Positions 2 through 28,042 of a DNA stretch of 32,000 nt are shown here, piece by piece. The translations under genes were made by a program, and so were the position numbers. The notes beneath the pieces were generated by a model. The model worked only from the letters and a program-made list of their open reading frames with translations, was not told the DNA's origin and did no database searches. Position 1 is the first letter of the stretch. Each line of letters begins with the position of its first letter. The stretch comes from an uncultured archaeon (GTDB lineage Archaea > Asgardarchaeota > Thorarchaeia > Thorarchaeales > CAZPUN01): assembly GCA_964589775.1 (NCBI GenBank), contig CAZPUN010000023.1, positions 60,001-92,000 on the forward strand. The letters are read 5' to 3'.

Positions 2-382
2 ATTCCATTCCTACAAATTGGCATTCCTACATTGGCAACTGCATTGGTTGTGATCGGTGGTTTAGTTCCTGCATGGTGGCTGTACATTGCTAGAAAGAGT
101 GATCCTGCAAAATTCACAATTAAACCAATTCAAACATTCTTAGTCAACAGATGGTATATCGATGCATTCTACAAGAAAGTGTTTGTAGGTGGAACATTAA
201 AGATCGCCTCTGGAATTAATTATCTTGAGAAGCAGTTTAACAGGCTCAATGTTGCTGTTGGAAATGGTATGAGCCGTGTATCTAGGGGCTTTGCAAAGAC
301 ACAAACAGGAATCCTAAGCGTTAATATTCTTGGAATGCTGCTTGGGATTGTTCTATTCCTGTTGTTCTTGCTGTATCTGTAG
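2..382 (+). CDS. nuoL: NuoL/MrpA-like antiporter subunit, C-terminal fragment (5' truncated by window)
   Basis: Frame is open from base 2. 'NRWYIDAFYKKVFV', a long amphipathic helix and 'QTG..' before a final TM helix match the NuoL C-terminus. It precedes NuoM- and NuoN-like genes. Confidence 0.8.
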   Translation: MPFLQIGIPTLATALVVIGGLVPAWWLYIARKSDPAKFTIKPIQTFLVNRWYIDAFYKKVFVGGTLKIASGINYLEKQFNRLNVAVGNGMSRVSRGFAKTQTGILSVNILGMLLGIVLFLLFLLYL

Positions 383-9640: not shown

Positions 9641-11173
9641 TTGTATTTGAATTATAGTGTAAATAACGAAACATTGTGTGAGGTTTGTCATAGACGTTCA
9701 GCTACACATATTTGTAACGACTGTGGGCTCGTTTTCTGTGAGGATTGTATAAAAAAGACAATGTCACAGTTTGTATTTTGCGCCGATTGCGGTTCGGAGG
9801 TTATTGGTAAGAAAGAAACAAAGGACGGTCCGGTTTATTATTGTCTTGAATGTGGCTCACAAAATCTTAAAGCTGGGCGTCGTATTAATGCAACATGTCC
9901 TAAATGTGGTTCCAAAAATATTTCTACAATTGATTCAATAAAAAGTGATTTATCTAATCGAATTAAAGAAGAAATTTATCAACTCCGCTATGGTGGAAAA
10001 TTATTAGTGGACTTGGCTAAAAAAATCAATGCTACTAAACGAAATCTTGTATCTTTGAGAATGTCTAATTTTGTTGAAAATCGAGAATTAGAGGATATCT
10101 TAAATAAAATTTATGCAGCATGGTCTGCATTAAAAGTTCAAATAGAATCGCAAACAAAATCCGCCGCAAAAGAAATTATTGGACTTACTAAAGGACGGCT
10201 TGATTCTGAAAAGTGGACTCCATCTGATTTTCATACACTTGAAGGTATTCTCTCTAGGATCGAAATTGTTATTGATAATTATCTCGAAACTGTAAACAGC
10301 AATTCAGAACAAATTAAAAAAGATCTAGACCTGCTAATTGAAAAAATAAAAGAATTAGAATCCTTCAGATTGAAGTTTGATGCGTTTTGGAGACATTGTA
10401 GATTAAATCTAAATGAATTTCCTGTTGCTGCTGTGGATGACTTAACTCTTACAGATAGCTCATTTCTTAAAGTCGACAAATGTGATGGTATATTATATTT
10501 CACAAATCAACGAATATTGTTTATTGCAATTAAGGGATTATTCTCCAAGAAAGAAACTATAGAATTTGAAATTGAATTAAAAGAAATTGCAGGTGTTCAA
10601 ATATCTGGTCGGTTAAGAAAACGTATAGATCTAATTACTCGTCAAGGAACAATTCAATTTATTTATTTTGATGATATCGATAGTGTTCTTGAATCTTATA
10701 TTTCTCGTGCAAAAGAATTCAATAGAAATGCTCAATTGAATCTTGATTATATCCGACAATTAGATAAGAGAAACATTGAAACCTCACAAATTATGGATGC
10801 GGTGGAAAAAATATTGAAAATCATCCTTAAAGCAGGATATCATCCTGCAATTTCGAACAAAGGTTTTCATAATTTCGAGCGTTCGCAAATCTCTCCTGCA
10901 CTTAACATTCCGATAGTAACAGAAGCCCCTCCTCGATCCGTACCCGTAGCAAATACTGATATTATTGTTGAGAAGCGCATACGTGATCGAATAAATCAAC
11001 TTGAACAGAATAAATTTTCAATTGAGCAGATGACTCAAGAATTAAAAGAAATGCATAGGGGCGGTCAAATCTCAATTGAGCAATTTACAAAGCAATATAT
11101 GGCACTAATGAAAGAGCTATACGTTATTAATAGTGAATTAGAAAAAATAAGGAATTTTGCAGGTAATATCTAA
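9641..11173 (+). CDS. Multidomain protein: six CxxC Zn-finger region, coiled coil, PH-like (GRAM/GLUE) domain, Pro-rich linker, steadiness-box/SHOCT-like C-terminus
   Basis: CEVC, CNDC, CEDC, CADC, CLEC, CPKC; DGILYFTNQRILF; C-terminal SIEQMTQELKEMHRGGQISIEQFTKQYMALMKELY. TTG start after GGAGGA. Confidence 0.7.
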   Translation: MYLNYSVNNETLCEVCHRRSATHICNDCGLVFCEDCIKKTMSQFVFCADCGSEVIGKKETKDGPVYYCLECGSQNLKAGRRINATCPKCGSKNISTIDSIKSDLSNRIKEEIYQLRYGGKLLVDLAKKINATKRNLVSLRMSNFVENRELEDILNKIYAAWSALKVQIESQTKSAAKEIIGLTKGRLDSEKWTPSDFHTLEGILSRIEIVIDNYLETVNSNSEQIKKDLDLLIEKIKELESFRLKFDAFWRHCRLNLNEFPVAAVDDLTLTDSSFLKVDKCDGILYFTNQRILFIAIKGLFSKKETIEFEIELKEIAGVQISGRLRKRIDLITRQGTIQFIYFDDIDSVLESYISRAKEFNRNAQLNLDYIRQLDKRNIETSQIMDAVEKILKIILKAGYHPAISNKGFHNFERSQISPALNIPIVTEAPPRSVPVANTDIIVEKRIRDRINQLEQNKFSIEQMTQELKEMHRGGQISIEQFTKQYMALMKELYVINSELEKIRNFAGNI

Positions 11174-11778
11174 GATTTTTCTTTCTCTTTCTCTATTTCA
11201 CGTCTTAGTAATTCTAATTCATCCAATACTTCTTCATCAGACTCTTTTGATGTTTCTTTCTTGGGTATTTCTGGGAATTCCTTCTCTAGTGCAACTTCCA
11301 TGCTTAATCTTTCTAATTCATCATCAACGCTCAATTCATCAATACCTGAATCTATGCTCTCCGCCGATATATCGCCCGCCATTTCTATTGTGCTCATATG
11401 GTCTGAAATATCACTCATTGTAGCTCCAATTTTCTCGGGGCTTACTTCGGCGGCTGTTTCTCTTAAGAGTGATTCGGCTTCTTTGAGTGTATCGGTTTGA
11501 ACTTTCAAATCTTCACCTATTTCAATGTGAGTACTTATAGCTTCTAGGTTTGACAGCATTCCATCATATTTTTTGGCTTGACGTATATAGTACTTACTTC
11601 TTAACAGTAGACTTCGAGCCTTATCTTTCTGACCATGAATTAAAGCATCTTTTGCTTTTCGTCTTAGTTCTTCTGCCTTATTTTCAAAGTTTCTTTTTCT
11701 TGCCTTTAATATTGTAATCGTTCGTCTTATTTTCATTTCTTTTGCTTGTTTGTCCTTTTTCTTTTTGAAAAATGGCAT
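11170..11778 (-). CDS. ESCRT-III subunit, Snf7 (Vps20/32/60)-like class
   Basis: Basic N-half and acidic C-half; GQKDKARSLLLRSKYYIRQAKKYDGMLSNLE resembles Snf7 helix 2; VDDELERL; FPEIP (MIM2-like); N-terminal PFFKKKK. Confidence 0.85.
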   Translation of the reverse strand: MPFFKKKKDKQAKEMKIRRTITILKARKRNFENKAEELRRKAKDALIHGQKDKARSLLLRSKYYIRQAKKYDGMLSNLEAISTHIEIGEDLKVQTDTLKEAESLLRETAAEVSPEKIGATMSDISDHMSTIEMAGDISAESIDSGIDELSVDDELERLSMEVALEKEFPEIPKKETSKESDEEVLDELELLRREIEKEKEKS

Positions 11779-11796
11779 ATTTTCACCAGCTGTGTT

Positions 11797-12393
11797 TTAT
11801 CCCGTGCCTAATTTCTTTTCGAGTTCTTTTACCTCTTTTTCTAAACTGTCTTCAGCTGATATTTCAACAGGCTCGCCCTTAGCTGCTGCAGTTATTTCTT
11901 TCAATGCGGCATCTAATTCATCAGGTGAAACTTCTGGTGATGATGCTTCAATTGCGGAACCTGATATTTCTCCCTCAATTTCAAATTCGCGGATTTTTCG
12001 TGCGATCATATCTGCATTTTTCGCGATTTCCTCAGCATCAATGGCTGCGCTTATACCATCAAGAGTGCCTGCAACTTCTGCTAAAACTGCATTCATTCTT
12101 CCTGTCATTTGAGCACGTTTTATTTGTGCAATTAATTTGACAATATGTAACCGATATCTATCTGCCATAAGTGCGGATTTTCTGAATTTTACCATTTCTG
12201 CTGCATACATTCGTGCAGCTTCATCCTTGCCTTGCTTCTTGTATTTTATCGCTTGCATTCTGGTCTGGCGTTCTTCCCGTTCGAGCATTCTTACTTGAAA
12301 TTTCAGACTGTTTGCAAGGCTTTGTAATCGGTAAATTAAATCGTCTACATTATCTTTCTTGAACCATCTCATGAATTTTTTTAGGGTTCCCAA
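11797..12393 (-). CDS. ESCRT-III subunit, Vps2/24/46-like class
   Basis: GKDEAARMYAAEMVKFRK resembles CHMP1/2/3 helix 2; N-terminal amphipathic LKKFMRWFKK; C-terminal MIM1-like DSLEKEVKELEKKL. TTG start. Confidence 0.85.
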   Translation of the reverse strand: MGTLKKFMRWFKKDNVDDLIYRLQSLANSLKFQVRMLEREERQTRMQAIKYKKQGKDEAARMYAAEMVKFRKSALMADRYRLHIVKLIAQIKRAQMTGRMNAVLAEVAGTLDGISAAIDAEEIAKNADMIARKIREFEIEGEISGSAIEASSPEVSPDELDAALKEITAAAKGEPVEISAEDSLEKEVKELEKKLGTG

Positions 12394-12533
12394 TATTGCT
12401 CCGTCCCATTAGTTCTTATTAACTATATATACGATATTGCCTAAATAATTCTTTGGTATCATTGCATAGTCTTTAGAATATACTTTATTAATATAATTTG
12501 ATATATATCTATATAGTCCGAGGTGAATTCTTT

Positions 12534-13013
12534 ATGTTAAGCAAAATTGGTCCGCTAATTGGTCTAGCAATAGCATTCGTATTGGTCTGGGCATTAATGG
12601 CATATGCGCCATTACCTGCAAGTTATCTTGATCCAAGTATAGTGAATCATTTCAATACAGCTCCAGATCTTGAAAGAAAGCTCTTAGTCATAATCGATGA
12701 AGTGTTGTATCCGCCATCAGGTATTTCTACAGTAGCCATGCTATCTTGGGGTGCTGGTGGTTTAGTAACCGGATTAGTAACCCAGGGACCCGGACGTGGT
12801 CTAATGGCTGCAATCATGTCTGTTATTCTTGGTGTTGTTTTAGTGTGGTTGTTTTATGTAGCTCTTTTTGGTTCTATTGATACTATCTTGAGTTCAGCAT
12901 CTTTGATTCAATTAGATAACTATTTTATGCATTCCATGTGGGGCGCAGTATCCTCTGGATTTGGTGGTTTACTTGGTGGCGCAATAAATCGTGAGAGCCT
13001 TGAATATGAATAA
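12534..13013 (+). CDS. Gly-rich small membrane protein (about 4 TM)
   Basis: GAGGLVTGLVTQGPGRG and GFGGLLGGA glycine-zipper helices. ATG 12534 follows GAGGTGA. Confidence 0.75.
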   Translation: MLSKIGPLIGLAIAFVLVWALMAYAPLPASYLDPSIVNHFNTAPDLERKLLVIIDEVLYPPSGISTVAMLSWGAGGLVTGLVTQGPGRGLMAAIMSVILGVVLVWLFYVALFGSIDTILSSASLIQLDNYFMHSMWGAVSSGFGGLLGGAINRESLEYE

Positions 13014-13021
13014 ATGGCTCT

Positions 13022-13627
13022 CTAATCTATAATTTTTTCATTATTTGTATAATTTCTCAATTTTCGACCACAAACAACACAGATCTCTGGATTTGATTTA
13101 TAAACCGCTCCACATTCGCATATTGTAATAATTTTTGGATGCTCTTTCTTTTCTAAGAATGCCTGGTGGGTCTCTCTAATTTTTTGTATTATAAAAGCTG
13201 ATACTATCCCAATGTTAAAAATAATTAACGTTACAAAAATGTCTTGAATCATAATTATATTTTTGGTAAATCTGTCTAATGAATTCCATGAATTTATATC
13301 TTGCAGTATTTTTATAGTAATAGAAATGAATGCGAAATATGCTCCTGATTTTGAAATAAATAATGCTGCATCTGAAATAGAACGACTTGATAATGCTGCA
13401 ATTAATCCGAATAATAAACTTGAAATTATTATAACAAAAACGCTTTGTAGATTATTAAATGAATAATTACCTATTTCGGTGACTTGTTGTATAATGTGTT
13501 TAATTGAATCTATATTCAAAAATATATTTCCTGTGTATAATGTACTTCCAATTAATGCGGCTACACTATTTACAAATATCGCATATATTATCGGCGTTAT
13601 TATGAATATTATTATACGTTTTTGCAC
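13022..13627 (-). CDS. Membrane protein with C-terminal Zn ribbon
   Basis: About 4 hydrophobic segments, then CECG-x8-CVVCG. Confidence 0.75.
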   Translation of the reverse strand: MQKRIIIFIITPIIYAIFVNSVAALIGSTLYTGNIFLNIDSIKHIIQQVTEIGNYSFNNLQSVFVIIISSLLFGLIAALSSRSISDAALFISKSGAYFAFISITIKILQDINSWNSLDRFTKNIIMIQDIFVTLIIFNIGIVSAFIIQKIRETHQAFLEKKEHPKIITICECGAVYKSNPEICVVCGRKLRNYTNNEKIID

Positions 13628-13729
13628 TTATTGTCACCAGAACTATTCTATACAAGTCAAGTTTCTGCGTATAAACTTAAAAAAGATGTTTATATAGGTG
13701 TATTCAGAAAAAATCATATGTAAATATTT

Positions 13730-14677
13730 ATGGGGATTGACACATTGGCAGAAAAGAAACAGGACGAATTAAAACTACGTACATACAAAGTATCTGTTGC
13801 AGGTCTTGTTATACTTTCAATAATCTTATCGTTAGTTACGATATACTTTTGGAATCCAACACCTGAAACTATAACTTCTATGCTATTCATTTTAATAGTT
13901 CTTCATAGTATTTTTGCTGTTGGGTTTGTTGTTGCATATGTTGAAGTTTCTGAGCATCCCGCGGAAAAGCGTTCTATCGATCGTCTTATGAATTTATATA
14001 CACAGCTTCGTGATGCTTATGAGGCTGCTGAACCGGATCTTGATTTTCTATCCTCACGATTTTACAATCTTCTCAACTATCTTATGAATATCTATACTAA
14101 GGAACCCGATCCTGCAAAGAGAGATCGTGCTTTTAATATTACTAATATTGTTAAAAGTATCAATGAACCTCTGGCAGCATCACGTGACTTTCTTACTAAT
14201 AATGAAACCATATATGATATTATCACAAATTTGGATGATATGACTGATATTCCCCTAGACAAAATTAAAGCTGCAATTGATGGTGCTAAGAACGTGGGCG
14301 AATCCGTTTTAAAAGCAATTCCCCCTCGAGCGCGTTCAAGAAATGCACTTTTTCTAAAGAAAAATGCTTCTGATGCAGTATCAACGTCTCATCAATTAGA
14401 GGATCTATTGAATCCTAATATTATTAAGCTTGATCGTGTTTTGCGTCAATTCCGTAATGAAGCAGAACTGATTAGTAAAGAAATGCCGTTATTCACAAAG
14501 AAGAATTTAGAGAATGCTTCTCTAATAAGCTTAATTTCATTAATTCCCTCTTTAAATGCAATATTCTTTATAGAAGCAACAAAATTCCATGTCTTACTTG
14601 AACTTATGTTTGTTAACTTTGCTTTGTTCTTTACAATATATGGTGTCTTTAGAAAAGTCAAAAAGGATGAGGAGTAA
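13730..14677 (+). CDS. Hypothetical membrane protein (2 TM + large helical loop + 2 TM)
   Basis: 315-aa ORF; hydropathy read by eye. Confidence 0.75.
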   Translation: MGIDTLAEKKQDELKLRTYKVSVAGLVILSIILSLVTIYFWNPTPETITSMLFILIVLHSIFAVGFVVAYVEVSEHPAEKRSIDRLMNLYTQLRDAYEAAEPDLDFLSSRFYNLLNYLMNIYTKEPDPAKRDRAFNITNIVKSINEPLAASRDFLTNNETIYDIITNLDDMTDIPLDKIKAAIDGAKNVGESVLKAIPPRARSRNALFLKKNASDAVSTSHQLEDLLNPNIIKLDRVLRQFRNEAELISKEMPLFTKKNLENASLISLISLIPSLNAIFFIEATKFHVLLELMFVNFALFFTIYGVFRKVKKDEE

Positions 14678-17472: not shown

Positions 17473-20400
17473 TTGATAATTATGAGTTCCAGCATGACAC
17501 GAAAGAAACGAATGTCACTTGTTGCTATATTGAGTACGCTAATCTTAATTGCTTCTATTGGGTATGGTGCATATACACTAATAATATCCCAAACTCCTTT
17601 AGCTAGGAGTACGGACCCCGCAGATCCTCCTGATTCTAATTTGTATTGGAATAGAACTATTAACTGGACAGGTGGAAATGCTGGAATTTATGATAATATG
17701 TCTTATGAGAATTTACCTATGGGAGAGAATTTCAGTCTTGACGATTTTATGGATAGTTTGAATCAGACAGTATTTACGGTATATCCTATAGATCCTCCAC
17801 AATATTGGAAGAAGGATTCATATGATCGATATACAGGTAGTAATTGGCAAAAATCGACTACTTCGACTTCTCCGTTAAATCTGATTACAAGAGATGAAGT
17901 TCCTAGTTCAAGTAATATATATACAATTAGAATTAATGTAACTGCAGATGCGCCATATGGCAATATTACCCTACCCACAATTTCACCATACGCCATGATT
18001 ATTGCTGATTCACTTAGGACCGATCCTCCTAATGCACTTACGAGTTATCATTTTGAAACTGATATTTATGGTTCTGCAATTTTAGTTATGGCATTTAATA
18101 CCCGCGGTCTTATTCAGATAGCTTATAATGTTACATTTTATCCTATCGATTTATCATACATAAGTGCTCATGCTTTAGAACCCACATATACCCCAACATC
18201 TATTTCAAATCTTTTTGCGGCGCTTCCATCTGATTTACCCACTCGTGTTCGTGATAATGCAACAAATAGCAATCTTGAAGGTGATAATGCATATGAGACA
18301 GCTGTAAATGTCATGAACTATTTGCAGACTAGATTTAAATTAATTCTTTCTGGAGAACGACCTCCCGAAGGCACTGATGTTGTGGAATGGTTCTTAGACC
18401 GTGGTGGTGGTTTGGATCTTGATTTTGCAACTGCACATGTAGTATTTCTACGCTGCTTGGGTGTATCTGCACGTGTGGTTATTGGATACGGTGCTGGCGA
18501 AGTTGTGGATGGTGTAAGACAAGTAAAGATTATGCATATGCATGCGTGGTCTGAAGTTTACATTCCCTTATTCACGAATGGGACTGGCGAATGGGTTCAA
18601 TTTGAACCTACACCAATTGGTGAAATACCCTATATTTCAGATTGGGATTTACCTGAAGATGGTTTGGAAAACTCATTAAATGCAACTTTAATTGTTTCTA
18701 CAAGTTCCTTTATAGTTAGGCGTTATACTCCATTTAATATCAGTGCAACATTAAAAGTTGGAATCACTCCAATTTCTGGCCAGAACGTTGTATTTTGGGA
18801 CTATAATTCTTCACGAATTTTAGGTAGTGCAATTACCAATAGCGAAGGAGTAGCTGAAATTACAACTCAATTAACTTCTTCTGAACCATTAGGGGTTCAA
18901 TTTCTTGTTGCAAATATTAGCAATGAACAAGGAACCATTTATAATTACACGATTGTATTATTACAAGGTAGTACTAATCTTACAGACACGCCTGGCGTTA
19001 TATGGGATGCAAGTCTACCACCCTTGATTGAACCGACTTCTGGTGATGAATCTCCTGATTATTCAATTCCTGCTTCATTAGTTCCAATCGATCTCAGATT
19101 AGGTGAAAAAGGTATTCCTGTTTATCGTGGTTTAGATACTCTGAAAATCTTTGGTGTACTACAAGATTCTGATGGAAATAATATCTCTTCAGATACTACT
19201 ACAAATGATGAAATCGAAATATATTATGATGGTGTGCTTCTCGGTACAACTACGTTTGACACTAATGGATACTACGAATACATTTATGTGGTACCCAGTA
19301 ATGAGGCATTAGGCAACCATACGATTTATTCATATTATGATGGAGATTATTATACATTACCCAATGGCACTCAAGTACCTGTTATTCTCCCTACAACCTC
19401 AAAAACTACGATCATTACTGTAATGGGCGCAAATACTCTTACACTTTATTCATCATCACAATTTGTTTATATTAATGAAAATGTGACCTTTTACGGCACT
19501 TTATCTTTCGACAATGGAACACCTATGGTTGGATATCCTGTCTCTATATGGATTAATAATGGTTCATGGTATAAAATTGCTGATGTTGTAACTGATTCCA
19601 ATGGAAATTATACTTATGACTATTATATACCCATTGGTTATCCTCTAGGAACAATTTACGTATATTCCCAATTCAATTCTTCAGATCCTGCAATATCTAA
19701 TGCAACTTCACCAACTATTTCAGTGCTTGTTACAAAACACAATACAACATTTTCGATTTTCGCTGCTAATCGAGTAATTGTGGGTGAAAATCTAACTATT
19801 CAAGGGACTTTGTATTCTGATACTGGAATCCCGATTAGTAATGTACCTATTACGCTCTATTGGAACAATGGCACTGAATATCCTATTGCTACTGTAACTA
19901 CAAATTCTACTGGAGGTTATTATTTCAATTACACCGTTCCATATAATCATACCTTTGGGAACGTGTATGTTTATGCACTTTACTCAGGAAATGAAACAAT
20001 TTTTAATAATCATACTGAAATTTTGACAGTACTTGTGGATTATATTCATGTAAGTCTTACATTATATACACAATCTGATGTAGGATCCAATCGAGTAATA
20101 ATTGGACGGAACATCACAATATATGGGCATATTGAATATGAAAATGGCACAAGTATTGCATACGTAAAAATAGAAATATATTGGAATAATGGCTCCTCAT
20201 ATTATACTAATGGAACCGAATATCTTCTCGCGGCAGTCTATACAAATTCTACTGGTGATTACGTTTTCAACTATACTGTTCCATATGATCATGATTTTGG
20301 TTATGTTCAAGTTTATACGAAATATTACTCGACGGTTCGAAATGTTGGTAATGCGACTTCACCAACGTCCAATGTACTTGTTGATTACATTCATGTAAAT

Positions 20401-23031
20401 CTGACTATATCTGCCATTAGTGATTGGAGTATTAATACAACACGTGCTATTGTCAGTCATAACGTAACAATTTCTGGTATTCTGACATATGAAAATGGGA
20501 CACCCATCACTAATGCATATGTTGCAATTTATTGGAATAATGGAACTACATGGAAAATTGCAAATATAACTACTAATTCAACAGGTGGATATATTTTCAA
20601 CTATACGGTGCCTTATAATCATGCATATGTGCTTGTAAGTATCTATTCTTCTTATTTATCGCATGTGCATGTCATAGGCAATGGCACATCTACAACCGTT
20701 CAGATTCAGGTTGATTATATTCATGTAATTATCTCTCAAAATGTTGAGCCCGCATGGGGCTATACCGATACTGCAATAATAAATACGACTGTAAAGATAT
20801 CTGGCATAATTTCATTAGAAAATGGTACAGTTCTAACTGGAGTAAGTGTGAAAATCTACTGGAATAATGGAACTGATGTATTAATTTCTACTGAAACTAC
20901 CAACTTTACTGGTGGTTATTCTTTCATTTATACTGTACCATATTACCATGACTTTACAACAATCTATATCTTTACAAATTATTCTAGTTCTGATAGAATC
21001 ATAGGTAATGGTACTTCGTCATCCAAGGCTCTTACGATTGATAATTTACACACTCAAATAGATTGGAATATTAATACATTAATCACGTCAAACATCGCTC
21101 CTATTACAAGCTATGTTAATATTAGTGGTACTTTAAGTTTAACAAATGGTACAATACTATCAAATAAGCCAATCCAAATTTGTTGGAATAATGGAACTGA
21201 AGTTGTAATTCAAACAATTTATACAGAATCTGATGGCAGTTTCTCATATGATTACAAAATTCCATATGATCATACTTTTAGTAATGTTCAAGTATATGTT
21301 CGTTTTGTTTCTTATGATCGACTATATGCAAATGTATCTTCATCAAGCTCAACAGTATTTGTTAGAAATTATCAAACACAAGTCACATTAAGCATATCTG
21401 AATCTACTGTTTATCCTAGTGATTCAATTTACTTTACAGGACGTTTATTGCTTAGTTATAATAGCAGTCCGCTTTCTAATATGCTTGTTCGCATTTATGC
21501 CGGTGATACGAGTTCTCCACACTTGCTTGCCAGCGGGTATACTAATAGTACTGGATATTATACCATATCATTTACAATACCTACTAGTGTAACAAGGGGT
21601 GATTATAACATTTGGGCAAACTTTACTTCAAGTGATCGCTTATATAATGCAACCCTAAGTTCATTAAATGTATTAACAATAAGAAAGCAAGCCACACTAA
21701 CTTTAACAATTAAAGATACGGCTCTTCGTAATTCTGTATTTTATATTGCGGGCCAAATTTTAGATTCCAATGGGAATCCAGAAGCGTACGCTCATGTTGA
21801 ATTAAGTATTCAACCCATGGGCTGGACCGGTTCTGCTACTACAGATTCTACTGGTTCATTCAATATTTCGTTAAATATACCAGATACTGCCAGTGGTCTT
21901 CAAACAGTCGAAGGATATGTTCCACCATCTACATATCTTGACGTATCCAATGTAACCAAAACATTTCAAATAGTTATTGCGACCACATTAAATGTTGAAA
22001 TAGATTCATCTCATTCATATTATTCTCAGGAGAATTTACAAATTTCTGGTGTTTTACGCGATGAAGACGGTAATTCTATAGCATCAAAACAAATTTATGT
22101 ATATATTGGGTCTTCAATAAGTGTAACAGCAAATACAAATAGTTCTGGTGGATTTAATTTTGATATTTCCCTATCTAGTATTACTGAAAATGGAATCTAC
22201 ACAATTACCGTTTCATTTGCTGGTGACACGAATTATATTGAAGCCAATTATACTGTTCAAATTCATATCTTCATTGCAGCACAAATATCAATGGAATCTG
22301 TTCCAAACAGTAATTTACAAACCGGCGAGCCTGTTGTGTTTATGGGACGTCTTCTTGATACTAGTTCAAATCCCATTGTGAATCGTGAAGTATCTTTCTA
22401 TGTAAACAATTCACTTATTCATTCGGTATACACGAATAGTTCTGGATACTTTACGTTTTCGTACACAGTACCCACTACATTAGAAAGTGGACACGTACTT
22501 GTTGATATACGCTCAGTTGCTAATACACAATATGAAGCAACCTTTAATATTGTTTCAAACAATAATAATAATAATACAACCCCTGGGGGTGGATCAATCC
22601 TGCAAATAAGTAATTTATTACCCTATATTGGACTTGGAGCTTTCATAGTTGTCCTCTTAATATATTACTTTATGGTTTATAGAACTGCAAAGCCAAAGGA
22701 AGTTGTACTTGACATTCCTGCAAAGCTAAGAAACATTAAGCGGCTGGCAGATGCAGGTCAATATTCAGAGGCTATCTCATTGGCATATCAGACTTTCGAG
22801 TTAATGGCTGAACGTACAACCGGAATTAAGCGTGCATCTCATCAGACAGCACGTGAATATCTTGAAACTGTTCTAAAAGAACTGCCAATTTCGAAAGACA
22901 TGATTATGCCGTTTCTCTCATACTATGAAGAGGCTCGATTTAGTAATCATACCATTACAAAAGAGCACTATGATAACGCTATTAGATTATTCACAGAAAT
23001 ATATCCACGTATTTCGGGAGGCACTGCATAG
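17473..23031 (+). CDS. Giant surface protein: N-terminal signal/TM, transglutaminase-like domain (Cys->Asp), ~12 Ig-like repeats, TM, DUF4129-like tail
   Basis: YWKKDSYDRYTGSNW; GLDLDFATA..LR.LG..AR.V.GY; HAWSEVY; WVQFEPTP; C-terminal QTAREY...YEEARFS.H. The start may instead be ATG 17482. Confidence 0.85.
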   Translation: MIIMSSSMTRKKRMSLVAILSTLILIASIGYGAYTLIISQTPLARSTDPADPPDSNLYWNRTINWTGGNAGIYDNMSYENLPMGENFSLDDFMDSLNQTVFTVYPIDPPQYWKKDSYDRYTGSNWQKSTTSTSPLNLITRDEVPSSSNIYTIRINVTADAPYGNITLPTISPYAMIIADSLRTDPPNALTSYHFETDIYGSAILVMAFNTRGLIQIAYNVTFYPIDLSYISAHALEPTYTPTSISNLFAALPSDLPTRVRDNATNSNLEGDNAYETAVNVMNYLQTRFKLILSGERPPEGTDVVEWFLDRGGGLDLDFATAHVVFLRCLGVSARVVIGYGAGEVVDGVRQVKIMHMHAWSEVYIPLFTNGTGEWVQFEPTPIGEIPYISDWDLPEDGLENSLNATLIVSTSSFIVRRYTPFNISATLKVGITPISGQNVVFWDYNSSRILGSAITNSEGVAEITTQLTSSEPLGVQFLVANISNEQGTIYNYTIVLLQGSTNLTDTPGVIWDASLPPLIEPTSGDESPDYSIPASLVPIDLRLGEKGIPVYRGLDTLKIFGVLQDSDGNNISSDTTTNDEIEIYYDGVLLGTTTFDTNGYYEYIYVVPSNEALGNHTIYSYYDGDYYTLPNGTQVPVILPTTSKTTIITVMGANTLTLYSSSQFVYINENVTFYGTLSFDNGTPMVGYPVSIWINNGSWYKIADVVTDSNGNYTYDYYIPIGYPLGTIYVYSQFNSSDPAISNATSPTISVLVTKHNTTFSIFAANRVIVGENLTIQGTLYSDTGIPISNVPITLYWNNGTEYPIATVTTNSTGGYYFNYTVPYNHTFGNVYVYALYSGNETIFNNHTEILTVLVDYIHVSLTLYTQSDVGSNRVIIGRNITIYGHIEYENGTSIAYVKIEIYWNNGSSYYTNGTEYLLAAVYTNSTGDYVFNYTVPYDHDFGYVQVYTKYYSTVRNVGNATSPTSNVLVDYIHVNLTISAISDWSINTTRAIVSHNVTISGILTYENGTPITNAYVAIYWNNGTTWKIANITTNSTGGYIFNYTVPYNHAYVLVSIYSSYLSHVHVIGNGTSTTVQIQVDYIHVIISQNVEPAWGYTDTAIINTTVKISGIISLENGTVLTGVSVKIYWNNGTDVLISTETTNFTGGYSFIYTVPYYHDFTTIYIFTNYSSSDRIIGNGTSSSKALTIDNLHTQIDWNINTLITSNIAPITSYVNISGTLSLTNGTILSNKPIQICWNNGTEVVIQTIYTESDGSFSYDYKIPYDHTFSNVQVYVRFVSYDRLYANVSSSSSTVFVRNYQTQVTLSISESTVYPSDSIYFTGRLLLSYNSSPLSNMLVRIYAGDTSSPHLLASGYTNSTGYYTISFTIPTSVTRGDYNIWANFTSSDRLYNATLSSLNVLTIRKQATLTLTIKDTALRNSVFYIAGQILDSNGNPEAYAHVELSIQPMGWTGSATTDSTGSFNISLNIPDTASGLQTVEGYVPPSTYLDVSNVTKTFQIVIATTLNVEIDSSHSYYSQENLQISGVLRDEDGNSIASKQIYVYIGSSISVTANTNSSGGFNFDISLSSITENGIYTITVSFAGDTNYIEANYTVQIHIFIAAQISMESVPNSNLQTGEPVVFMGRLLDTSSNPIVNREVSFYVNNSLIHSVYTNSSGYFTFSYTVPTTLESGHVLVDIRSVANTQYEATFNIVSNNNNNNTTPGGGSILQISNLLPYIGLGAFIVVLLIYYFMVYRTAKPKEVVLDIPAKLRNIKRLADAGQYSEAISLAYQTFELMAERTTGIKRASHQTAREYLETVLKELPISKDMIMPFLSYYEEARFSNHTITKEHYDNAIRLFTEIYPRISGGTA
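18715..22550 (+). repeat. About 12 degenerate ~100-110-aa beta-rich intragenic repeats
   Basis: Consensus xIxGxL..xNGTPI....V.IYWNNGT...TTNSTG.Y.FNYTVP. WNNG codons start at 19861, 20182, 20533, 20860 and 21184 (spacing 321-351 nt). Boundaries approximate. Confidence 0.8.
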
Positions 23032-24386
23032 TGAATATAAAAGGCGTCGCGCAATTGTTAATCTTTATGCTATCTTGGCTACCAATTATCATGATTGCGA
23101 CAGGTGTAAATGTCACTCCAACATTTCCATACTCAATTTACAATTCGCAATGGAACGGTTTGAGTGATTTCAAAACTGAGCTTGAAAATGAAGGCTACAC
23201 TGTACGGCCAATCTTTTCAACAATTGATATTGCGAGTCGATACCATGGCGACGCCGTATTAGTAATTATCGGCCCTGTCATGCCCTTTGTTGAATCCGCT
23301 ACGTTAGGTTTATGGGCGCATCTTTCTCAAGGTGGCGGTGTTCTTATTGCGGATGATTTCGGGAGTGCCAATAATTCGTTGGCTCCGCTTAATGCTTTAT
23401 TCATGAGTGCTGCAAGCGCCCATGGTGGATTACCAAGTGGGATCAAGTCTCTCATTTCATTCGAAGGCGGAATACTTTATGATATTGATTCATATGACGA
23501 ATATCCAACACATCCTGTAATTACAAATATTGCCTCTGATAATCCCATTATGCAAGGTGTAACTTCAATAGAATTAAATCGAGCTACGGCACTTAAACAC
23601 AATTCATTAATTAACCTAAATGGTATTGCACGTACGACTCAAAGGTCCTGGTGTGATAGGAACGGTGATGAGTTTCCGAATGAAAACGAAGTTGCAGGTC
23701 TTCTTTCTGTTGTAGGTGTTATTCCTCGAATGGCACCCCTACTAAATGGTTCTATTGTTGTAACATCTGACCCCGACATCTTTACTAATGATGGTCTTAC
23801 TAAAGCTGATAATAATAGATTTGCACTGAATGTAATTGATTATCTTGCTGATTATAATCATAGTAAGACAATACTATTCGCAGAAAATCTATTACAGTGG
23901 CCACCCTATTCTCCTGAATATATCTATGGTGCGATTTTAGGTAAAGTAACTGGATTCTCGACAAATGCTATCATAGCTCCATTATTTCCAATTCTTGCAG
24001 CGTTTACTGTTAAACGCTGGATTCCCGAGGTTAAGCCACCTGAAGTAAAACGAATGACTGAAATATTCCAAACAAAAAGTGAGACATTCTTCACTACAAC
24101 ATTAGAAGCGTATAAACTTAGTAAAGACTATGTAAAAGCAATTAAAATGTTAGTTCGAAAGCTCAAGCGTGATCTAATGCGGCGAAGGTCTATAGATGTG
24201 TTTAAAGCTGCTGAAATCTACACGATCTTACAAGACAAAGGTCCATCAATGGATGAAAAGCAATTTAATAAATTATGGGAAAAGCTTATGGACGTTCTAA
24301 ATAATAAAGTTTCGAAGTTAGAAGATGACGATTTCCTTGAATTGTTCTTCTTTATTAAAAATATTGAATATGCTCTATATGCATAA
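23031..24386 (+). CDS. DUF4350-like membrane-anchored protein
   Basis: YSIYNSQWNGLS, GGGVLIADDFG, IVVTSDPDIFTN...N..FA. GTG start overlaps the upstream TAG; typical MoxR-operon context. Confidence 0.75.
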   Translation: MNIKGVAQLLIFMLSWLPIIMIATGVNVTPTFPYSIYNSQWNGLSDFKTELENEGYTVRPIFSTIDIASRYHGDAVLVIIGPVMPFVESATLGLWAHLSQGGGVLIADDFGSANNSLAPLNALFMSAASAHGGLPSGIKSLISFEGGILYDIDSYDEYPTHPVITNIASDNPIMQGVTSIELNRATALKHNSLINLNGIARTTQRSWCDRNGDEFPNENEVAGLLSVVGVIPRMAPLLNGSIVVTSDPDIFTNDGLTKADNNRFALNVIDYLADYNHSKTILFAENLLQWPPYSPEYIYGAILGKVTGFSTNAIIAPLFPILAAFTVKRWIPEVKPPEVKRMTEIFQTKSETFFTTTLEAYKLSKDYVKAIKMLVRKLKRDLMRRRSIDVFKAAEIYTILQDKGPSMDEKQFNKLWEKLMDVLNNKVSKLEDDDFLELFFFIKNIEYALYA

Positions 24387-24425
24387 AAAATACTGGAGGT
24401 ACCCAAACTGAGTGATTCGGATATA

Positions 24426-25394
24426 ATGAGCCCAAAAGAAGCTGCATCACTTGAACTTGATGTAAAAGAAGTTCAAAGACGCGGCCAAGAAATTATAAGT
24501 GAAGTTCAAAGACTAATTGTTGGAAAAAGCAACATACTTAATGATATTTTAATTGCGCTACTTGCGAAGGGGCATGTAGTGCTTGAAGGTGTTCCAGGAC
24601 TTGCAAAGACATACATGGCAAACACATTTGCAAAGATTCTGGGATGTGCTTTTAAGAGAATTCAAATGACTGTAGACACATTACCTGCAGACATTGTAGG
24701 TTCAAATGTTTACAACCAAGCAACTGGTGAGTTCTGGTTTAGAGAAGGCCCAGTGTTTGCAAATATCGTTCTAGCGGATGAAATTAATCGAGCACCACCC
24801 AAAACACAATCTGCACTTCTAGAAGTCATGGAAGAAAAGCAAGTAAGTATCGAAGGTGTAACCCGTAAATTACCGCGCCCGTTCATTGTCATTGCTACTA
24901 TGAACCCTGTCGAGCAGGAAGGTACTTATCCTCTGCCAGAGGCACAACTTGACCGATTCATGTATCGTTTGATACTTGATTATCCCAAACCCGAAGAAGA
25001 GGTTGAAATCTTAAGACGCAAAGACATGGGAACCAGATTGTCCGTACGTGTATTGGCAAATCCTGAAATTATTATTGCAATGCAAAAAACAGTTGAAAAC
25101 GTATTTATTGATGATGATGTCAAAGAGTACATTCGAGATTTGATCGTACGTACTCGAAATGATGCCCAAATAATACTTGGTGGCAGTCCTCGTGCGTCAA
25201 TTGTTCTAATGAATGGTGGAAAAGCTCATGCTGCTTTAGAAGGTCGCGATTATGTTATACCTGAAGATATTCGCGCTTTGGCTGTACAAGCATTGAATCA
25301 TAGATTGATTTTGAAGCCTGAAGCCGAACTTGAAGGAATTACTGTACGAAAGGTGATTGAACGTATACTTAGAGAAATTGATGTTCCTAAATGA
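24426..25394 (+). CDS. moxR: MoxR-family AAA+ ATPase
   Basis: GHVVLEGVPGLAKT (Walker A), RIQMT.D.LP.DI.G, ADEINRAPPKTQSALLE, NPVEQEGTYPLPEAQLDRF, SPRA. Confidence 0.95.
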   Translation: MSPKEAASLELDVKEVQRRGQEIISEVQRLIVGKSNILNDILIALLAKGHVVLEGVPGLAKTYMANTFAKILGCAFKRIQMTVDTLPADIVGSNVYNQATGEFWFREGPVFANIVLADEINRAPPKTQSALLEVMEEKQVSIEGVTRKLPRPFIVIATMNPVEQEGTYPLPEAQLDRFMYRLILDYPKPEEEVEILRRKDMGTRLSVRVLANPEIIIAMQKTVENVFIDDDVKEYIRDLIVRTRNDAQIILGGSPRASIVLMNGGKAHAALEGRDYVIPEDIRALAVQALNHRLILKPEAELEGITVRKVIERILREIDVPK

Positions 25395-25409
25395 TCGGAG
25401 GTTAAATAA

Positions 25410-26729
25410 ATGTTAACGCGAAGAGGCGCATTTGTAGCATTAGCTGGCTCTACATTACTAGCATCTGGATTTGCGTTTGTGAACTATTACATGTTGTTGA
25501 TTGGAACTTTTTTGATATTTGGACTAGTGTTTAGTCTTCCACTCTTCGCGTTAACAGCGCATGTAAGTGGAATTGAAGTAGAACGAATCCTAGATAAAAA
25601 CAAGGTCTTTGCTGGAGACTTTATTCACGTAAAGGTCAAGGTGAAAAACAAATCCCATAGAATGTTTGACTTCATAGAAATCTATGATGCATATCCAGAA
25701 GTGTGGGTGCTTGCATTAGGCGATAATGGAATTGCAACACGACTGGAGCCTGGTAAGGAATCATCTTTCTCATATATTGTCCAGTGTCGTGTTAGAGGCG
25801 AATATAAAATTGGTCCAACCACTGTAATACTAAAAGATCGTATGGGCTTCCATTATTACAAGAGAGAGATTCGTGCACATACTGAGGTTCTCGTTTACCC
25901 AACCTACAAGGATGTCAGAAAGATGCAAGCTTTGGGACCAAAGAGACAGTTGGGTATATTGTTTGGTGCTCATAGAACTCGTGTAGTTGGTATGGGTAGT
26001 GACTTCTATGGATTCAAACTTTACACAGTTGGCGATCCATTTAGGCTGATTGACTGGAAAGTCTCAGCAAAGCGTGGTAAGGCATATGTCAAGCAATTTG
26101 AATCTGAAAAGAATGTACGTGTTGTTATTTTTGTTGATAGTAGTGGATCTATGGGTAATGGTTATCCTGAAAATACGAAACTAGAATATGCAATACGTGC
26201 AGCGGTTCTTCTAGCACATTTTGCTATTGAGCGTCGCGATCCTGTTGGTGTTGTTGTATTCTCTGATACTGTACATCAATGGGTACCTCCATCTTATGTT
26301 CGAGACCATATTTACAAAATATTAGACGCACTTGCAATGGCAAAAGCTAGAGGTGGTTCTGATTATGTATCTGCTGTCGAATATGTAAACAAAAAGTTAA
26401 CAAAGCGTGCATTCTTTATGTTTCTAACTGACCTTGAAGAATCTACTTCTGACATTGCCGATGCTATCAAGAAATCTATTGCATTTGGGCATCATGCAAT
26501 TGTAATTTCGCCATTTGGTCCGTGGTTTGAAGTTCCTATTGGTGAATTTGATCCCGTAGATAAGGCGCTTGCAGAGGCTGTGTCTGAAGAATTATATCAA
26601 CGTAGAATGGAGATCGCGCGTATTTTATCCAATTTTGGGGTTCCTACGATAAATGTTGGTCCCGAGGACTTTCTGCCTACGGTTCTAAAAGAGTTCTTGA
26701 AGGCAAAACAAAGAGGAGTGGTAATGTAA
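25410..26729 (+). CDS. DUF58 / vWA-domain protein with two N-terminal TM helices
   Basis: RGEY..GP....D..G, VYP, Y..GD..R.IDWK.SA, MIDAS DSSGSM, KLEYA, LTD. Confidence 0.9.
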   Translation: MLTRRGAFVALAGSTLLASGFAFVNYYMLLIGTFLIFGLVFSLPLFALTAHVSGIEVERILDKNKVFAGDFIHVKVKVKNKSHRMFDFIEIYDAYPEVWVLALGDNGIATRLEPGKESSFSYIVQCRVRGEYKIGPTTVILKDRMGFHYYKREIRAHTEVLVYPTYKDVRKMQALGPKRQLGILFGAHRTRVVGMGSDFYGFKLYTVGDPFRLIDWKVSAKRGKAYVKQFESEKNVRVVIFVDSSGSMGNGYPENTKLEYAIRAAVLLAHFAIERRDPVGVVVFSDTVHQWVPPSYVRDHIYKILDALAMAKARGGSDYVSAVEYVNKKLTKRAFFMFLTDLEESTSDIADAIKKSIAFGHHAIVISPFGPWFEVPIGEFDPVDKALAEAVSEELYQRRMEIARILSNFGVPTINVGPEDFLPTVLKEFLKAKQRGVVM

Positions 26730-28042
26730 TGCGAATAACTTCGTATATTCTTAGATTTCTTTCAATTGGCTTATATGGATACATGATGTACACAATCTAT
26801 CGCTTAATAAATCCTGAAATTTGGAACTTATCATCGCCCTATTTGTTTTTTGTAAACGTTTTTCATTTATTCAGCTATTTTATGCTATTCTTGGCGGGAG
26901 TATTTGCTTATCAAATCGGAGTTGGCCTATCATCTATGACTGGCAGTGCATTAGGTTCTGATCAACTTTTATTAGGTCTTCTACGAGATATTTACGGTAA
27001 ATTATGGTATCTCACTCCTCTTCCAAACTTTGCATCATTTGATGAATTCTTTGCATATATCTTTCAAAAATCCCTTGAATCTATAGATTTGATAAAGTAT
27101 TTTGCAGTATTTTTCGCAGCTGCAGTTTCCGTGCTTTCCGTTATATTTTTCTTTTTCACTTCAAATTCTAGATATGCAAATATTTCATTTTTTGGTGCGC
27201 AAGGCGCATTAATTCTAAGTACATATTTCGGATACTCATCATTTGGTGAAACATCATATCCTTATTCCGCATTGGCATTCCTGTTTTCACAATTGTTCTT
27301 ATTATCTATTGCATCTTTTGGATTCTTGGAAATTAGCTATCAAGCTTCATATGCACATCTTGTTGGGGAGCCTGTTTTAGAACGTAAGAAGAAGATTGAA
27401 AAGCAACTTCAAACTCTTGATGCTGAAGCCAGACGACTTGAGCGCAAAAGTGAGGAACTTGCATCTGGAAAATCATCAGCTCGTGTATTAAGAACTGAAT
27501 CTGGAACAATTGGTACATTTATTCGTGAAGCAATGGAACGTTCTCAAGTTAAAAAAGAAATGTTAAGAACTTTGGATGCAATCGGTGACGTCCGCAGATT
27601 GCAAGCTTATGTTGATAACTTGTTTAATAGTGACAAAGAAGCTAAAGAATTATTAACAGCAACTGCCTCTGCCCCCTCAGAAGGCTATGTTGCATTATCA
27701 ACTTTCTTAGGCACTATTATGCGATTTATCGGTGTTAGTCTATTAGTATATATAGCTGTGACACCACATCTTGTATTATCTTTGATATCTAAATTAACAC
27801 CTCTTGCAGAAAGTGCTGAAGCTTCACAGCCTGAAATCTTGTTGATCATCATGGTTCCATTAGTCCTAACAATACCCTTCATAGCGTTTGTTATCGGACA
27901 AATATATGGTGAAGAAGTTTCTGAAGAAGAGCTCAAAAAGAAATCACACGGTAAAATAAAGAAGCGAATTAAAAAGAAAGTACCCCTTAAGAAAGTACCA
28001 AAGAAACTTAAAAAGTCCGTGAAATCTTCATCAACTACCTAA
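26729..28042 (+). CDS. Hypothetical polytopic membrane protein with central coiled coil and Lys-rich tail
   Basis: TAATG coupling to the DUF58 gene; about 7 hydrophobic segments; charged helical insert; tail KKKSHGKIKKRIKKK. Confidence 0.75.
   Translation: MRITSYILRFLSIGLYGYMMYTIYRLINPEIWNLSSPYLFFVNVFHLFSYFMLFLAGVFAYQIGVGLSSMTGSALGSDQLLLGLLRDIYGKLWYLTPLPNFASFDEFFAYIFQKSLESIDLIKYFAVFFAAAVSVLSVIFFFFTSNSRYANISFFGAQGALILSTYFGYSSFGETSYPYSALAFLFSQLFLLSIASFGFLEISYQASYAHLVGEPVLERKKKIEKQLQTLDAEARRLERKSEELASGKSSARVLRTESGTIGTFIREAMERSQVKKEMLRTLDAIGDVRRLQAYVDNLFNSDKEAKELLTATASAPSEGYVALSTFLGTIMRFIGVSLLVYIAVTPHLVLSLISKLTPLAESAEASQPEILLIIMVPLVLTIPFIAFVIGQIYGEEVSEEELKKKSHGKIKKRIKKKVPLKKVPKKLKKSVKSSSTT

Follow-up and report, generated by a model that had tools for sequence, protein, structure and literature searches.

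Three adjoining genes in the 32 000 nucleotide stretch of thorarchaeal DNA analysed here (the window) encode two ESCRT-III proteins and a 510 aa protein that combines zinc fingers with a PH domain and a steadiness box (SB). The original prediction saw in them a compact, non-canonical locus and a separate membrane-remodelling module, and the question is whether they are such a module or belong to the ordinary ESCRT machinery of Asgard archaea. In our view, the locus is probably one of two halves of the canonical Asgard ESCRT cluster of the Thorarchaeota type, parted from the other by a rearrangement.

The gene content and the positions of the three genes in Table 1 agree exactly with those in the original prediction, as do the 18 nt gap between the ESCRT-III genes and the 4 nt convergent overlap. 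This overlap consists of stop codons only, TAA at 11171–11173 on the forward strand and TAG at 11170–11172 on the reverse strand. From the sequence, the ESCRT-III genes are probably transcribed as one operon, and the AT-rich region beyond ESCRT-IIIA is likely to be a promoter region; Vps4 in relatives is found on this side of ESCRT-IIIA. In Pfam scans of the 31 largest ORFs of the window, the genes surrounding the trio proved to be metabolic or otherwise unrelated. Genome-wide profile searches also bore out the statement that no Vps4, Vps25, Vps22/36, Vps28 or ubiquitin gene is inside the window, and the profile matches for these genes were confined to other contigs, or to the same contig beyond the window.

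Table 1. Features of the ESCRT locus, with positions numbered from the first nucleotide of the window
Feature	Position	Strand	Details
Znr_CC_PH_SB gene	9641..11173	+	510 aa, TTG start; database form is 508 aa
Three zinc ribbons	9668..9928	+	residues about 10–96; conservation and AF2 model
Coiled-coil region	9929..10387	+	AF2 helices 97–141, 149–183 and 194–249; pLDDT about 90–97
PH domain, GRAM/GLUE type	10421..10714	+	residues 261–358; Foldseek; small helical part, 360–398, next to it
Disordered linker	10847..10954	+	residues 403–438; pLDDT <50 (AF2 model)
Vps23-type SB helical hairpin	10955..11167	+	residues 439–509; profile and Pfam
ESCRT-IIIB (Vps20/32/60-like) gene	11170..11778	-	202 aa
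Spacer between ESCRT-III genes	11779..11796	-	18 nt; GGTGA Shine-Dalgarno-like motif before the downstream ATG
ESCRT-IIIA (Vps2/24/46-like) gene	11797..12393	-	198 aa, TTG start
AT-rich divergent intergenic region	12394..12497	.	TATA-like runs; between ESCRT-IIIA and a gene for a 171 aa membrane protein

The zinc finger, PH and SB make-up proposed for the 510 aa protein was confirmed by conservation, an AF2 model (pLDDT 88), Foldseek and an SB profile. The zinc ribbons contain 12 Cys in six CxxC pairs (C13/16, C25/28, C33/36, C47/50, C68/71 and C86/89), all of them invariant or at least 90 % conserved among 33 homologues, and the modules are modelled as β-hairpins with pLDDT >94. B-box, RING, FYVE and zf-UBP were rejected as identities for this region because their Pfam matches were all below the cut-offs. 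The PH domain matched many PH domains with a Foldseek probability of 1.0. Its domain-sized matches included the PH-like domain of Lam6 (5yqr), the GLUE domain of Vps36 (2cay; TM 0.58 on the target, 17–20 % identity) and BBS5, and Pfam bPH_3 reached 17.9 bits, below its cut-off. A likeness of the whole model to DH-PH RhoGEFs and dynamin, also returned by Foldseek, has an rmsd of about 20 Å and was set aside as a coincidence of helix bundle plus PH domain.

For the C-terminal hairpin, a profile made from 20 members of the family matched the yeast Vps23 core (2p22_A, E 2e-7; also 2f66_A and 2caz_A), TSG101 (6vme_B, E 7e-5) and VPS37B (E 0.019), and Pfam Vps23_core matched 13 of the 20 family members (best E 4e-7). 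The hairpin of the 510 aa protein itself scored 21.8 bits (E 2e-4) with Pfam CdvA (PF18822), below the 30 bit cut-off. Pfam found neither a UEV domain nor an EAP30/winged-helix core in this protein. These domains, with an SB of the Vps23/TSG101 type, support the view of the protein as an ESCRT-I-like adaptor that combines zinc fingers, PH domain and steadiness box, and it is referred to below as the adaptor.

A family with this architecture, Znr_CC_PH_SB or Znr_PH_CC_SB (asCOG cog.011556), has been described by Makarova et al. (2024, mBio; PMC10936438). The label of cog.011556 in the asCOGs had previously been 'Steadiness/Vps23 box', and a supplementary table of the same study lists a Lokiarchaeum member in convergent orientation to Vps20 and separated from it by one gene (PMC10936438). 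As the adaptor has the zinc ribbons, coiled coil, PH domain and C-terminal SB of this family, together with its Asgard range and ESCRT neighbourhood, it matches the family by its published description, on the sequence and model evidence used here. A word-based homologue search with the adaptor found only a 100 % identical record and one relative that is 75 % identical, and an exhaustive HMMER search found 91 family representatives at E≤1e-3. The family profile recognizes the adaptor with an E value of about 1e-142, and has matches at E≤1e-5 in 289 of the 301 genomes of the phylum, many of the weaker ones partial. The genome carries a single full-length copy of the adaptor gene, and one orthologue is likewise present in 39 of the 40 same-order genomes. 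In the literature, we found no experiment on the adaptor or a close orthologue.

The class assignments proposed for the two ESCRT-III proteins also held. Snf7 (PF03357, gathering cut-off 27.3 bits) matched the 202 aa protein with 73.4 bits and the 198 aa protein with 35.4 bits. The best PDB matches of the 198 aa protein were CHMP1B (E 2e-4), CHMP1A and CHMP3, and those of the 202 aa protein were 9fn1, an Asgard 'Vps20/32/60-like' protein (E 3e-11), and 9ftl, a Heimdall ESCRT-IIIB. In a quick IQ-TREE run, the former lies in the Vps2/24/46 (IIIA) clade and the latter in the IIIB clade, with SH-aLRT 100 for the split between the clades; in this quick tree, the 202 aa protein is on a long branch (length 1.47) and is placed only approximately, near the root of the IIIB clade. 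The N-terminus of the 198 aa protein, MGTLKKFMRWFKK, aligns with MGTFKKAWSWGRKK of its orthologues, which supports the TTG start, and its C-terminal LEKEVKELEKKLG fits the LExxIKxLExELG helix conserved in the orthologues. At the C-terminus, both ESCRT-III proteins have acidic, Leu-rich amphipathic helices, conserved in orthologues, which appear MIM1-like when judged by eye against the consensus in the literature. A further IIIB paralogue is encoded on contig C20. However, because the 198 aa gene is the only Vps2/24/46-class gene detected in the genome, the pair in the window is, on gene content, the core ESCRT-III set and not a second module.

As the adaptor and ESCRT-III genes are convergent, they cannot be co-transcribed, and their linkage had been regarded as perhaps due to chance. 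This was examined using genome searches and inspection of the regions around the matches. An ESCRT-III gene is convergent with the adaptor gene in all 38 informative loci, which cover 18 genomes of related Thorarchaeota together with six further Asgard families. In the 18 loci extracted from the same order, the neighbour is always the IIIA orthologue, and the stop-to-stop gap is −4 to +4 nt in 16 of them. When coordinates were compared by hand, a convergent Snf7 gene was found beside the adaptor gene in 37 of 39 same-order genomes, the other two being contig ends. In the other six families, ESCRT-III is convergent downstream of the adaptor gene in 20 of 20 loci, usually as IIIB followed by IIIA, which is exactly the order in the window, where the 202 aa IIIB occupies what appears to be the ancestral position beside the adaptor gene. 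Three of these loci read Vps25-Vps4 <> IIIA-IIIB >< Znr. The idea that the convergent genes lie together by chance and are functionally unconnected would agree with the unrelated functions of the other flanking genes, but the same pairing across seven Asgard families, whose adaptors are down to about 20–30 % identical, refutes it, and we regard its probability as negligible. The linkage of the adaptor gene to ESCRT-III in relatives, where the original prediction proposed a check by synteny, is established.

The remaining ESCRT genes were located elsewhere in the genome. Vps22SB, Vps25 and Vps4 are adjacent on contig C64, with no ESCRT-III gene nearby; Vps22SB (C64:32106-32903) is a Vps22-like ESCRT-II subunit with a Vps28-type SB fused at its N-terminus, and genes for EAP30 proteins are present on both C64 and C21. 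The searches found a single Vps4. A second Vps4_C match lies in a 739 aa frame; what its equivalents in relatives have in common with it is limited to the AAA region (46 % identity). In four near-complete Thorarchaeota genomes, a stretch of about 5 kb reads Vps22SB >< Vps25-Vps4 <> IIIA >< Znr, and the single IIIB gene of these cluster-keeping relatives sits elsewhere. The close relative with the 75 % identical adaptor has the same split arrangement as the genome studied here, and the same flanking genes. The locus and the Thorarchaeota cluster (Vps22SB, Vps25, Vps4, ESCRT-IIIA and Znr_CC_PH_SB) thus share orthologous genes and the same junction at the 3′-end of the adaptor gene, with the short gaps noted above. 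They differ in that IIIB here lies between IIIA and the adaptor gene, as in other Asgard classes, and that the Vps4 side is now on a different contig. The terms 'non-canonical' and 'separate' were not borne out, since the tail-to-tail layout is standard for Asgard archaea and the sister family, Thorarchaeota, has a single cluster. Because it is half of a standard cluster, and the adaptor family was described in 2024, the trio is not a new, separate machine. Relative to the Znr_CC_PH_SB family as described, which is Asgard-specific and encoded near ESCRT genes, in convergent orientation to Vps20-class ESCRT-III, there is no difference in kind; what is particular to this lineage is that Vps4, Vps25 and Vps22SB no longer adjoin the adaptor gene and the ESCRT-III pair.

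Pairing between products of the two halves was examined by co-folding. Residues 1–100 of Vps22SB co-folded with the adaptor SB scored 0.83, compared with 0.37 for the best control. For comparison, 58 of 80 solved complexes attained the pass mark, as did 2 of 110 mismatched pairs; however, the co-fold resembles the solved Vps23–Vps28 headpiece, and the pass may reflect only this likeness. At least 81 % of the contacts were common to the runs, with a partner pLDDT of at least 85. The modelling gives tentative support to pairing of the adaptor SB with the Vps28-like SB of Vps22SB, and this predicted pairing, together with the Vps23 type of the adaptor SB, would favour a route coupled to ESCRT-II. 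The ESCRT-II-independent route originally envisaged is not supported, as docking on Vps22SB would point the other way. In yeast two-hybrid experiments on Loki- and Thorarchaeota, their 'freestanding steadiness box protein', which likely belongs to Znr_CC_PH_SB, was found to be a possible interactor of Vps28 (Hatano 2022; PMC9192718). However, we note that the conserved neighbour of the adaptor gene is ESCRT-III and not Vps22SB, which could equally indicate a direct contact between adaptor and ESCRT-III. Several other SB-hairpin proteins are encoded in the genome, at C26:9658-10170, C23:133379-134758 and C21:16306-17106, and could be competing partners.

The zinc fingers of the adaptor had also been linked to ubiquitin. 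Genome-wide profile searches found no match for ubiquitin or E2, and no significant match for UEV, the only one being a sub-threshold match elsewhere in the genome (E 0.06). A ubiquitin-related role for the zinc fingers is doubtful for this reason, and the absence agrees with the literature on Thorarchaeota (PMC9192718).

Eukaryotic Vps23/TSG101 has the same general plan as the adaptor, with a recognition module at the N-terminus, then a helical stalk and a flexible stretch, and an SB hairpin at the C-terminus; by the co-fold, the hairpin of the adaptor may also pair with a Vps28-type SB. However, the adaptor has zinc ribbons and a PH domain in place of the UEV domain, and its genome has no detected ubiquitin system. 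Yeast Vps36, with its GLUE and NZF domains, also combines a GLUE/GRAM-like PH domain and small zinc modules in one ESCRT subunit, here of ESCRT-II. The adaptor differs from Vps36 in lacking the EAP30/winged-helix core, and its zinc modules lie at the N-terminus, not within the PH domain, and by score are faintly B-box-like and not NZF.

Two other readings need to be weighed against that of a detached half-cluster. The trio would be a self-contained second membrane-remodelling module if the adaptor recruited its own ESCRT-III pair without ESCRT-II. The position of the trio apart from Vps4, Vps25 and Vps22SB, both in this genome and in the close relative, is in keeping with this, as are the extra IIIB paralogue on C20 and the possible contacts from ESCRT-I/II to ESCRT-III that bypass Vps25 in Thorarchaeota (Hatano 2022; PMC9192718). 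However, there are not two complete sets, as the one IIIA-class gene is that in the window, and there is a single Vps4. In addition, the sister family has the same genes clustered with Vps4, Vps25 and Vps22SB, and the predicted docking site of the adaptor SB is the SB of Vps22. We consider a second module very unlikely.

In Crenarchaeota, CdvA recruits CdvB, and the cdvA, cdvB and cdvC genes are linked. The adaptor might act in a similar way, with its PH domain on the membrane and direct recruitment of the adjoining ESCRT-III, any SB–SB contact with ESCRT-II being secondary. The phylum-wide, invariant convergent neighbourhood with ESCRT-III recalls the cdvA-cdvB-cdvC linkage, and, like CdvA, the adaptor is a (predicted) membrane-binding protein with a helical hairpin encoded beside ESCRT-III/Vps4. 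The similarity of the hairpins is weak, consisting of the sub-threshold Pfam CdvA match, though SB and the CdvA hairpin have been linked in published work (PMC10936438; bioRxiv 10.1101/2023.07.25.550441). Against this, the N-terminus of the adaptor has zinc ribbons and no PRC-barrel was seen, the hairpin profile fits Vps23/TSG101 much better than CdvA, and neither ESCRT-III protein, both being about 200 aa and mostly Snf7, has the winged-helix extension bound by CdvA. Such a recruiter is unlikely as the main explanation. Recruitment of this kind could also hold together with the half-cluster reading.

Returning to the half-cluster reading, the analysis shows which genes these are, how the adaptor is built and that the linkage is conserved, and we infer the following membrane or cargo targeting and order of assembly. 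The PH domain, with or without the zinc ribbons, would bring the adaptor to a membrane, a cargo protein or a partner protein, by analogy with the GLUE domain of Vps36; ubiquitin is an unlikely ligand here, and the difference between archaeal lipids and the phosphoinositides bound by Vps36 counts against the analogy. The flexible linker would then present the Vps23-type SB, whose predicted partner is the Vps28-type SB of the Vps22SB encoded on C64. Vps22SB and Vps25 may nucleate ESCRT-IIIB, as suggested by the eukaryotic Vps25–Vps20 pair and by Asgard Vps25–ESCRT-IIIB contacts in yeast two-hybrid experiments (Hatano 2022; PMC9192718). ESCRT-IIIA would co-assemble, and Vps4 would remodel the polymer through the MIM-like C-terminal helices.

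As a tentative extension, in Asgard archaea of the Thorarchaeota type, where ubiquitin, E2 and a Vps23 with UEV are not detectable, Znr_CC_PH_SB may be the sole Vps23-type subunit, docked by its SB on Vps22SB in a hard-wired, ubiquitin-independent ESCRT-I/II that is targeted by the PH domain and zinc ribbons. Such targeting is possibly the ancestral way in which Asgard archaea aimed ESCRT-III before ubiquitin was taken into the system. The near gap-free convergent junction, kept across the order, might also couple expression of the adaptor and ESCRT-III through antisense transcription at the 3′-ends.

The main value of this analysis is that it corrects the first reading, as the locus appears to be the detached half of an ordinary Asgard cluster and its adaptor family has been known since 2024. 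For research on the origin of ESCRT it makes modest additions, namely that the adaptor SB is specifically Vps23-like and is paired, in co-folding, with the Vps28-like box of Vps22, and that the convergent junction between adaptor and ESCRT-III is conserved throughout the phylum and almost gap-free within the order. Because the whole set is kept in a lineage with no detectable ubiquitin system, the adaptor is a good candidate for research on ubiquitin-independent targeting of ESCRT in Asgard archaea.

The window covers positions 60001-92000 of contig C23. Its genome (2.16 Mb, 64 contigs, estimated completeness 96.75 %) has 'Candidatus Thorarchaeota' as its order-level relatives, according to the names carried by homologues. 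The ORFs found for the three ESCRT genes (see table) have exactly the coordinates originally predicted, and the overlap, the spacer and the ESCRT-III pair were likewise confirmed. On reading the sequence, the 4 nt shared by the genes for the adaptor and the facing ESCRT-III protein (IIIB, Vps20/32/60-like) are just the two stop codons. In the 18-nt spacer between this gene and that for the second ESCRT-III protein (IIIA, Vps2/24/46-like), a GGTGA motif precedes the downstream ATG, and the two minus-strand genes are therefore probably one operon. The proposed division into two ESCRT-III classes was supported by comparison with solved structures, the closest being CHMP1B, CHMP1A and CHMP3 for IIIA, and 9fn1 (Asgard 'Vps20/32/60-like protein') and 9ftl (Heimdall ESCRT-IIIB) for IIIB. 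It was also supported by a tree of 69 ESCRT-III proteins drawn from the extracted loci, which has an IIIA and an IIIB clade (SH-aLRT 100), with the 198-aa protein inside the former and the long-branched 202-aa protein basal in the latter.

Positions of ESCRT-related features. Coordinates without a prefix refer to the window; C21, C23, C26 and C64 are contigs of the same genome; residues are those of the adaptor.
Feature	Position	Strand	Basis
Adaptor gene, 510 aa	9641-11173	+	ORF
IIIB gene, 202 aa	11170-11778	-	ORF; Pfam Snf7 above threshold
IIIA gene, 198 aa	11797-12393	-	ORF; Pfam Snf7 above threshold
Zn-binding hairpins	residues ~10-96		AF2 model
Three long helices	residues 97-249		AF2 model
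PH-type beta-sandwich, then small helical part	residues 261-358 (sandwich)		AF2 model
Disordered linker	residues 403-438		AF2 model
C-terminal helical hairpin	residues 439-509		AF2 model
Vps22SB, N-terminal Vps28/Vps23-core-like SB	C64:32106-32903
Vps25	C64:32900-33574
Vps4	C64:33577-34782
Other SB-hairpin proteins	C26:9658-10170, C23:133379-134758, C21:16306-17106, C23:151896-152231		adaptor SB profile

Synteny across Asgard genomes was examined, and the linkage is kept. One adaptor orthologue (~30 % identity) was found in 39 of 40 genomes of the same order, and, when coordinates of adaptor and Snf7 matches were compared by hand, a convergent Snf7 gene adjoined it in 37 of the 39, the other two being at contig ends. 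The neighbour is an orthologue of the IIIA gene in all 18 extracted same-order loci. The stop codons of the two genes lie -4 to +4 nt apart in 16 of these 18 (L015-L033) and -4 nt apart in the window (11170-11173), and therefore, judging from sequence, the 3′ ends of the transcripts must overlap or lie within the opposite gene. A convergent ESCRT-III gene is also downstream of the adaptor in 20/20 loci from six other Asgard families, where the usual order after the adaptor is IIIB then IIIA, as in the window. Three of these loci read Vps25-Vps4 <> IIIA-IIIB >< adaptor (<>, divergent; ><, convergent), and four near-complete Thorarchaeota genomes carry Vps22SB >< Vps25-Vps4 <> IIIA >< adaptor within ~5 kb, Vps22SB being a Vps22-like ESCRT-II subunit with a fused N-terminal steadiness box (SB). 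The arrangement in the window is thus the standard one rather than 'non-canonical', and its peculiarity is the missing Vps4 side (Vps22SB, Vps25 and Vps4), which in the Thorarchaeota cluster is joined to IIIA and the adaptor.

The Vps4/ESCRT-II cluster of this genome, sought as a check, was found on C64, where Vps22SB, Vps25 and Vps4 directly follow one another and ESCRT-III genes are absent from their flanks. The window's own trio (adaptor, IIIB and IIIA) is not a 'separate' module but belongs to the standard Asgard cluster, with the remainder on C64. In a close relative whose sequence comes from a public run (adaptor 75 % identical), the window's trio recurs between the same flanking genes (LarA, UDP-GlcNAc 2-epimerase and small unknown genes), so that the split characterizes the lineage and is not an artefact of assembly. 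Stand-alone Vps28, ubiquitin and a significant UEV were not found in this genome, in agreement with the reported lack of ubiquitin and UEV-Vps23 in Thorarchaeota (PMC9192718; bioRxiv 10.1101/2023.07.25.550441); E2 was also not found, a weak negative because the E2 control matched none of the control genomes. The three-gene stretch C21:19461-25989 (L013:7461-13989) begins with a second ESCRT-II-like gene, whose 805-aa product ends in an EAP30 (Vps22/36) domain. Its context is unusual, as the next two genes encode 235 aa and 1139 aa, the latter with a GCS2-type ligase match.

One further Snf7 gene (C20:59817-60503; L012:9817-10503; 228 aa) is of the IIIB class, so the window holds the only IIIA gene detected in the genome. 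This C20 gene is solitary, adjoining a HAD hydrolase gene close to a contig end, and is the orthologue of the dispersed single IIIB gene of Thorarchaeota relatives, which keep IIIA beside the adaptor. Other Asgard classes have the order adaptor, IIIB, IIIA. The 202-aa IIIB is most simply read as descending, with fast evolution, from the ancestral copy in the cluster, which the sister family would have lost; it could also be a secondary insertion. In two other Asgard genomes, the adaptor-side IIIB gene appears broken: at L062:7584-8452 it is divided between two ORFs (117 and 171 aa), and at L057:7574-7816 just 80 aa of it are left, an intact IIIB gene lying at a distance of 2.2 kb.

On the IIIA side, where relatives carry Vps4, are three genes (12498-14677; 171, 201 and 315 aa) with hydrophobic N-termini, no Pfam match and no homologues in the extracted loci of other Asgard families; the close relative has, at the matching position, a pair of unnamed genes for proteins of comparable length (159 and 198 aa). 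Further along, a co-directional block (17473-28042, + strand) has the appearance of a MoxR-DUF58-transglutaminase operon that includes an unusually large surface protein. Its first gene encodes 1852 aa, with a transglutaminase core, DUF4129 and many macroglobulin/Ig/CarboxypepD_reg-type domains, and is followed by genes for DUF4350, a MoxR-type AAA ATPase, a DUF58/VWA protein and a 437-aa protein without a Pfam match.

Twelve Cys of the adaptor, arranged as six CxxC pairs, are conserved in an alignment of 33 homologues, and the AF2 model of the protein has a mean pLDDT of 88.4. Foldseek returned PH domains at probability 1.0, the domain-sized matches including the Vps36 GLUE domain (2cay, TM 0.58 on target) and the Lam6 PH-like domain. 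A hairpin profile built from 20 family members matched the yeast Vps23 core (E 2e-7), TSG101 (E 7e-5) and VPS37B (E 0.019), and 13 of the 20 hairpins matched Pfam Vps23_core; similarity to CdvA is faint. The predicted Zn-finger/PH/SB architecture is therefore borne out, and is the published Znr_PH_CC_SB or Znr_CC_PH_SB (asCOG cog.011556), considered by its authors a likely ESCRT-I component without eukaryotic members, probably ancestral in Asgard archaea (PMC10936438). In Lokiarchaeum, a single gene separates the family member from a convergent Vps20 gene (supplementary table, PMC10936438).

The same profile matched the N-terminal SB of Vps22SB (E 0.003) and four more SB-hairpin proteins of this genome (E 8e-9 to 1e-4), which, by sequence, could possibly be extra headpiece partners. 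Co-folding residues 1-100 of Vps22SB with the adaptor hairpin scored 0.83 (best control, 0.37), with at least 81 % of contacts common to the runs and partner pLDDT of at least 85; among solved complexes 58 of 80 reached that mark, and among mismatched pairs 2 of 110. The interface comprises Vps22SB residues 14-51 and residues 34-63 of the 75-residue hairpin fragment (~469-498 of the full adaptor). The model suggests that the adaptor SB may pair with Vps22SB, but, because the Vps23-Vps28 headpiece is a solved structure, the pass may reflect likeness to it rather than prove binding. Published yeast two-hybrid assays report a possible interaction of Vps28 with a 'freestanding steadiness box protein' of Loki- and Thorarchaeota, which is likely to belong to this family, and contacts of Vps25 with ESCRT-IIIB (PMC9192718). 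The most economical model is therefore a chain in which the adaptor, targeted through its PH/Zn module, would dock on Vps22SB by SB-SB pairing, with Vps25, IIIB, IIIA and lastly Vps4 following. Direct contact between adaptor and ESCRT-III is possible, and would fit the invariant ESCRT-III gene neighbour, the CdvA similarity and the 'bypass' hints in the literature (PMC9192718). The chain through Vps22SB and Vps25 is the more economical, and the 'ESCRT-II-independent' route of the original prediction was not borne out; what stands of that interpretation is the adaptor itself and its architecture. The adaptor family and its convergent ESCRT-III arrangement are of an already known kind, to which the window adds another member.
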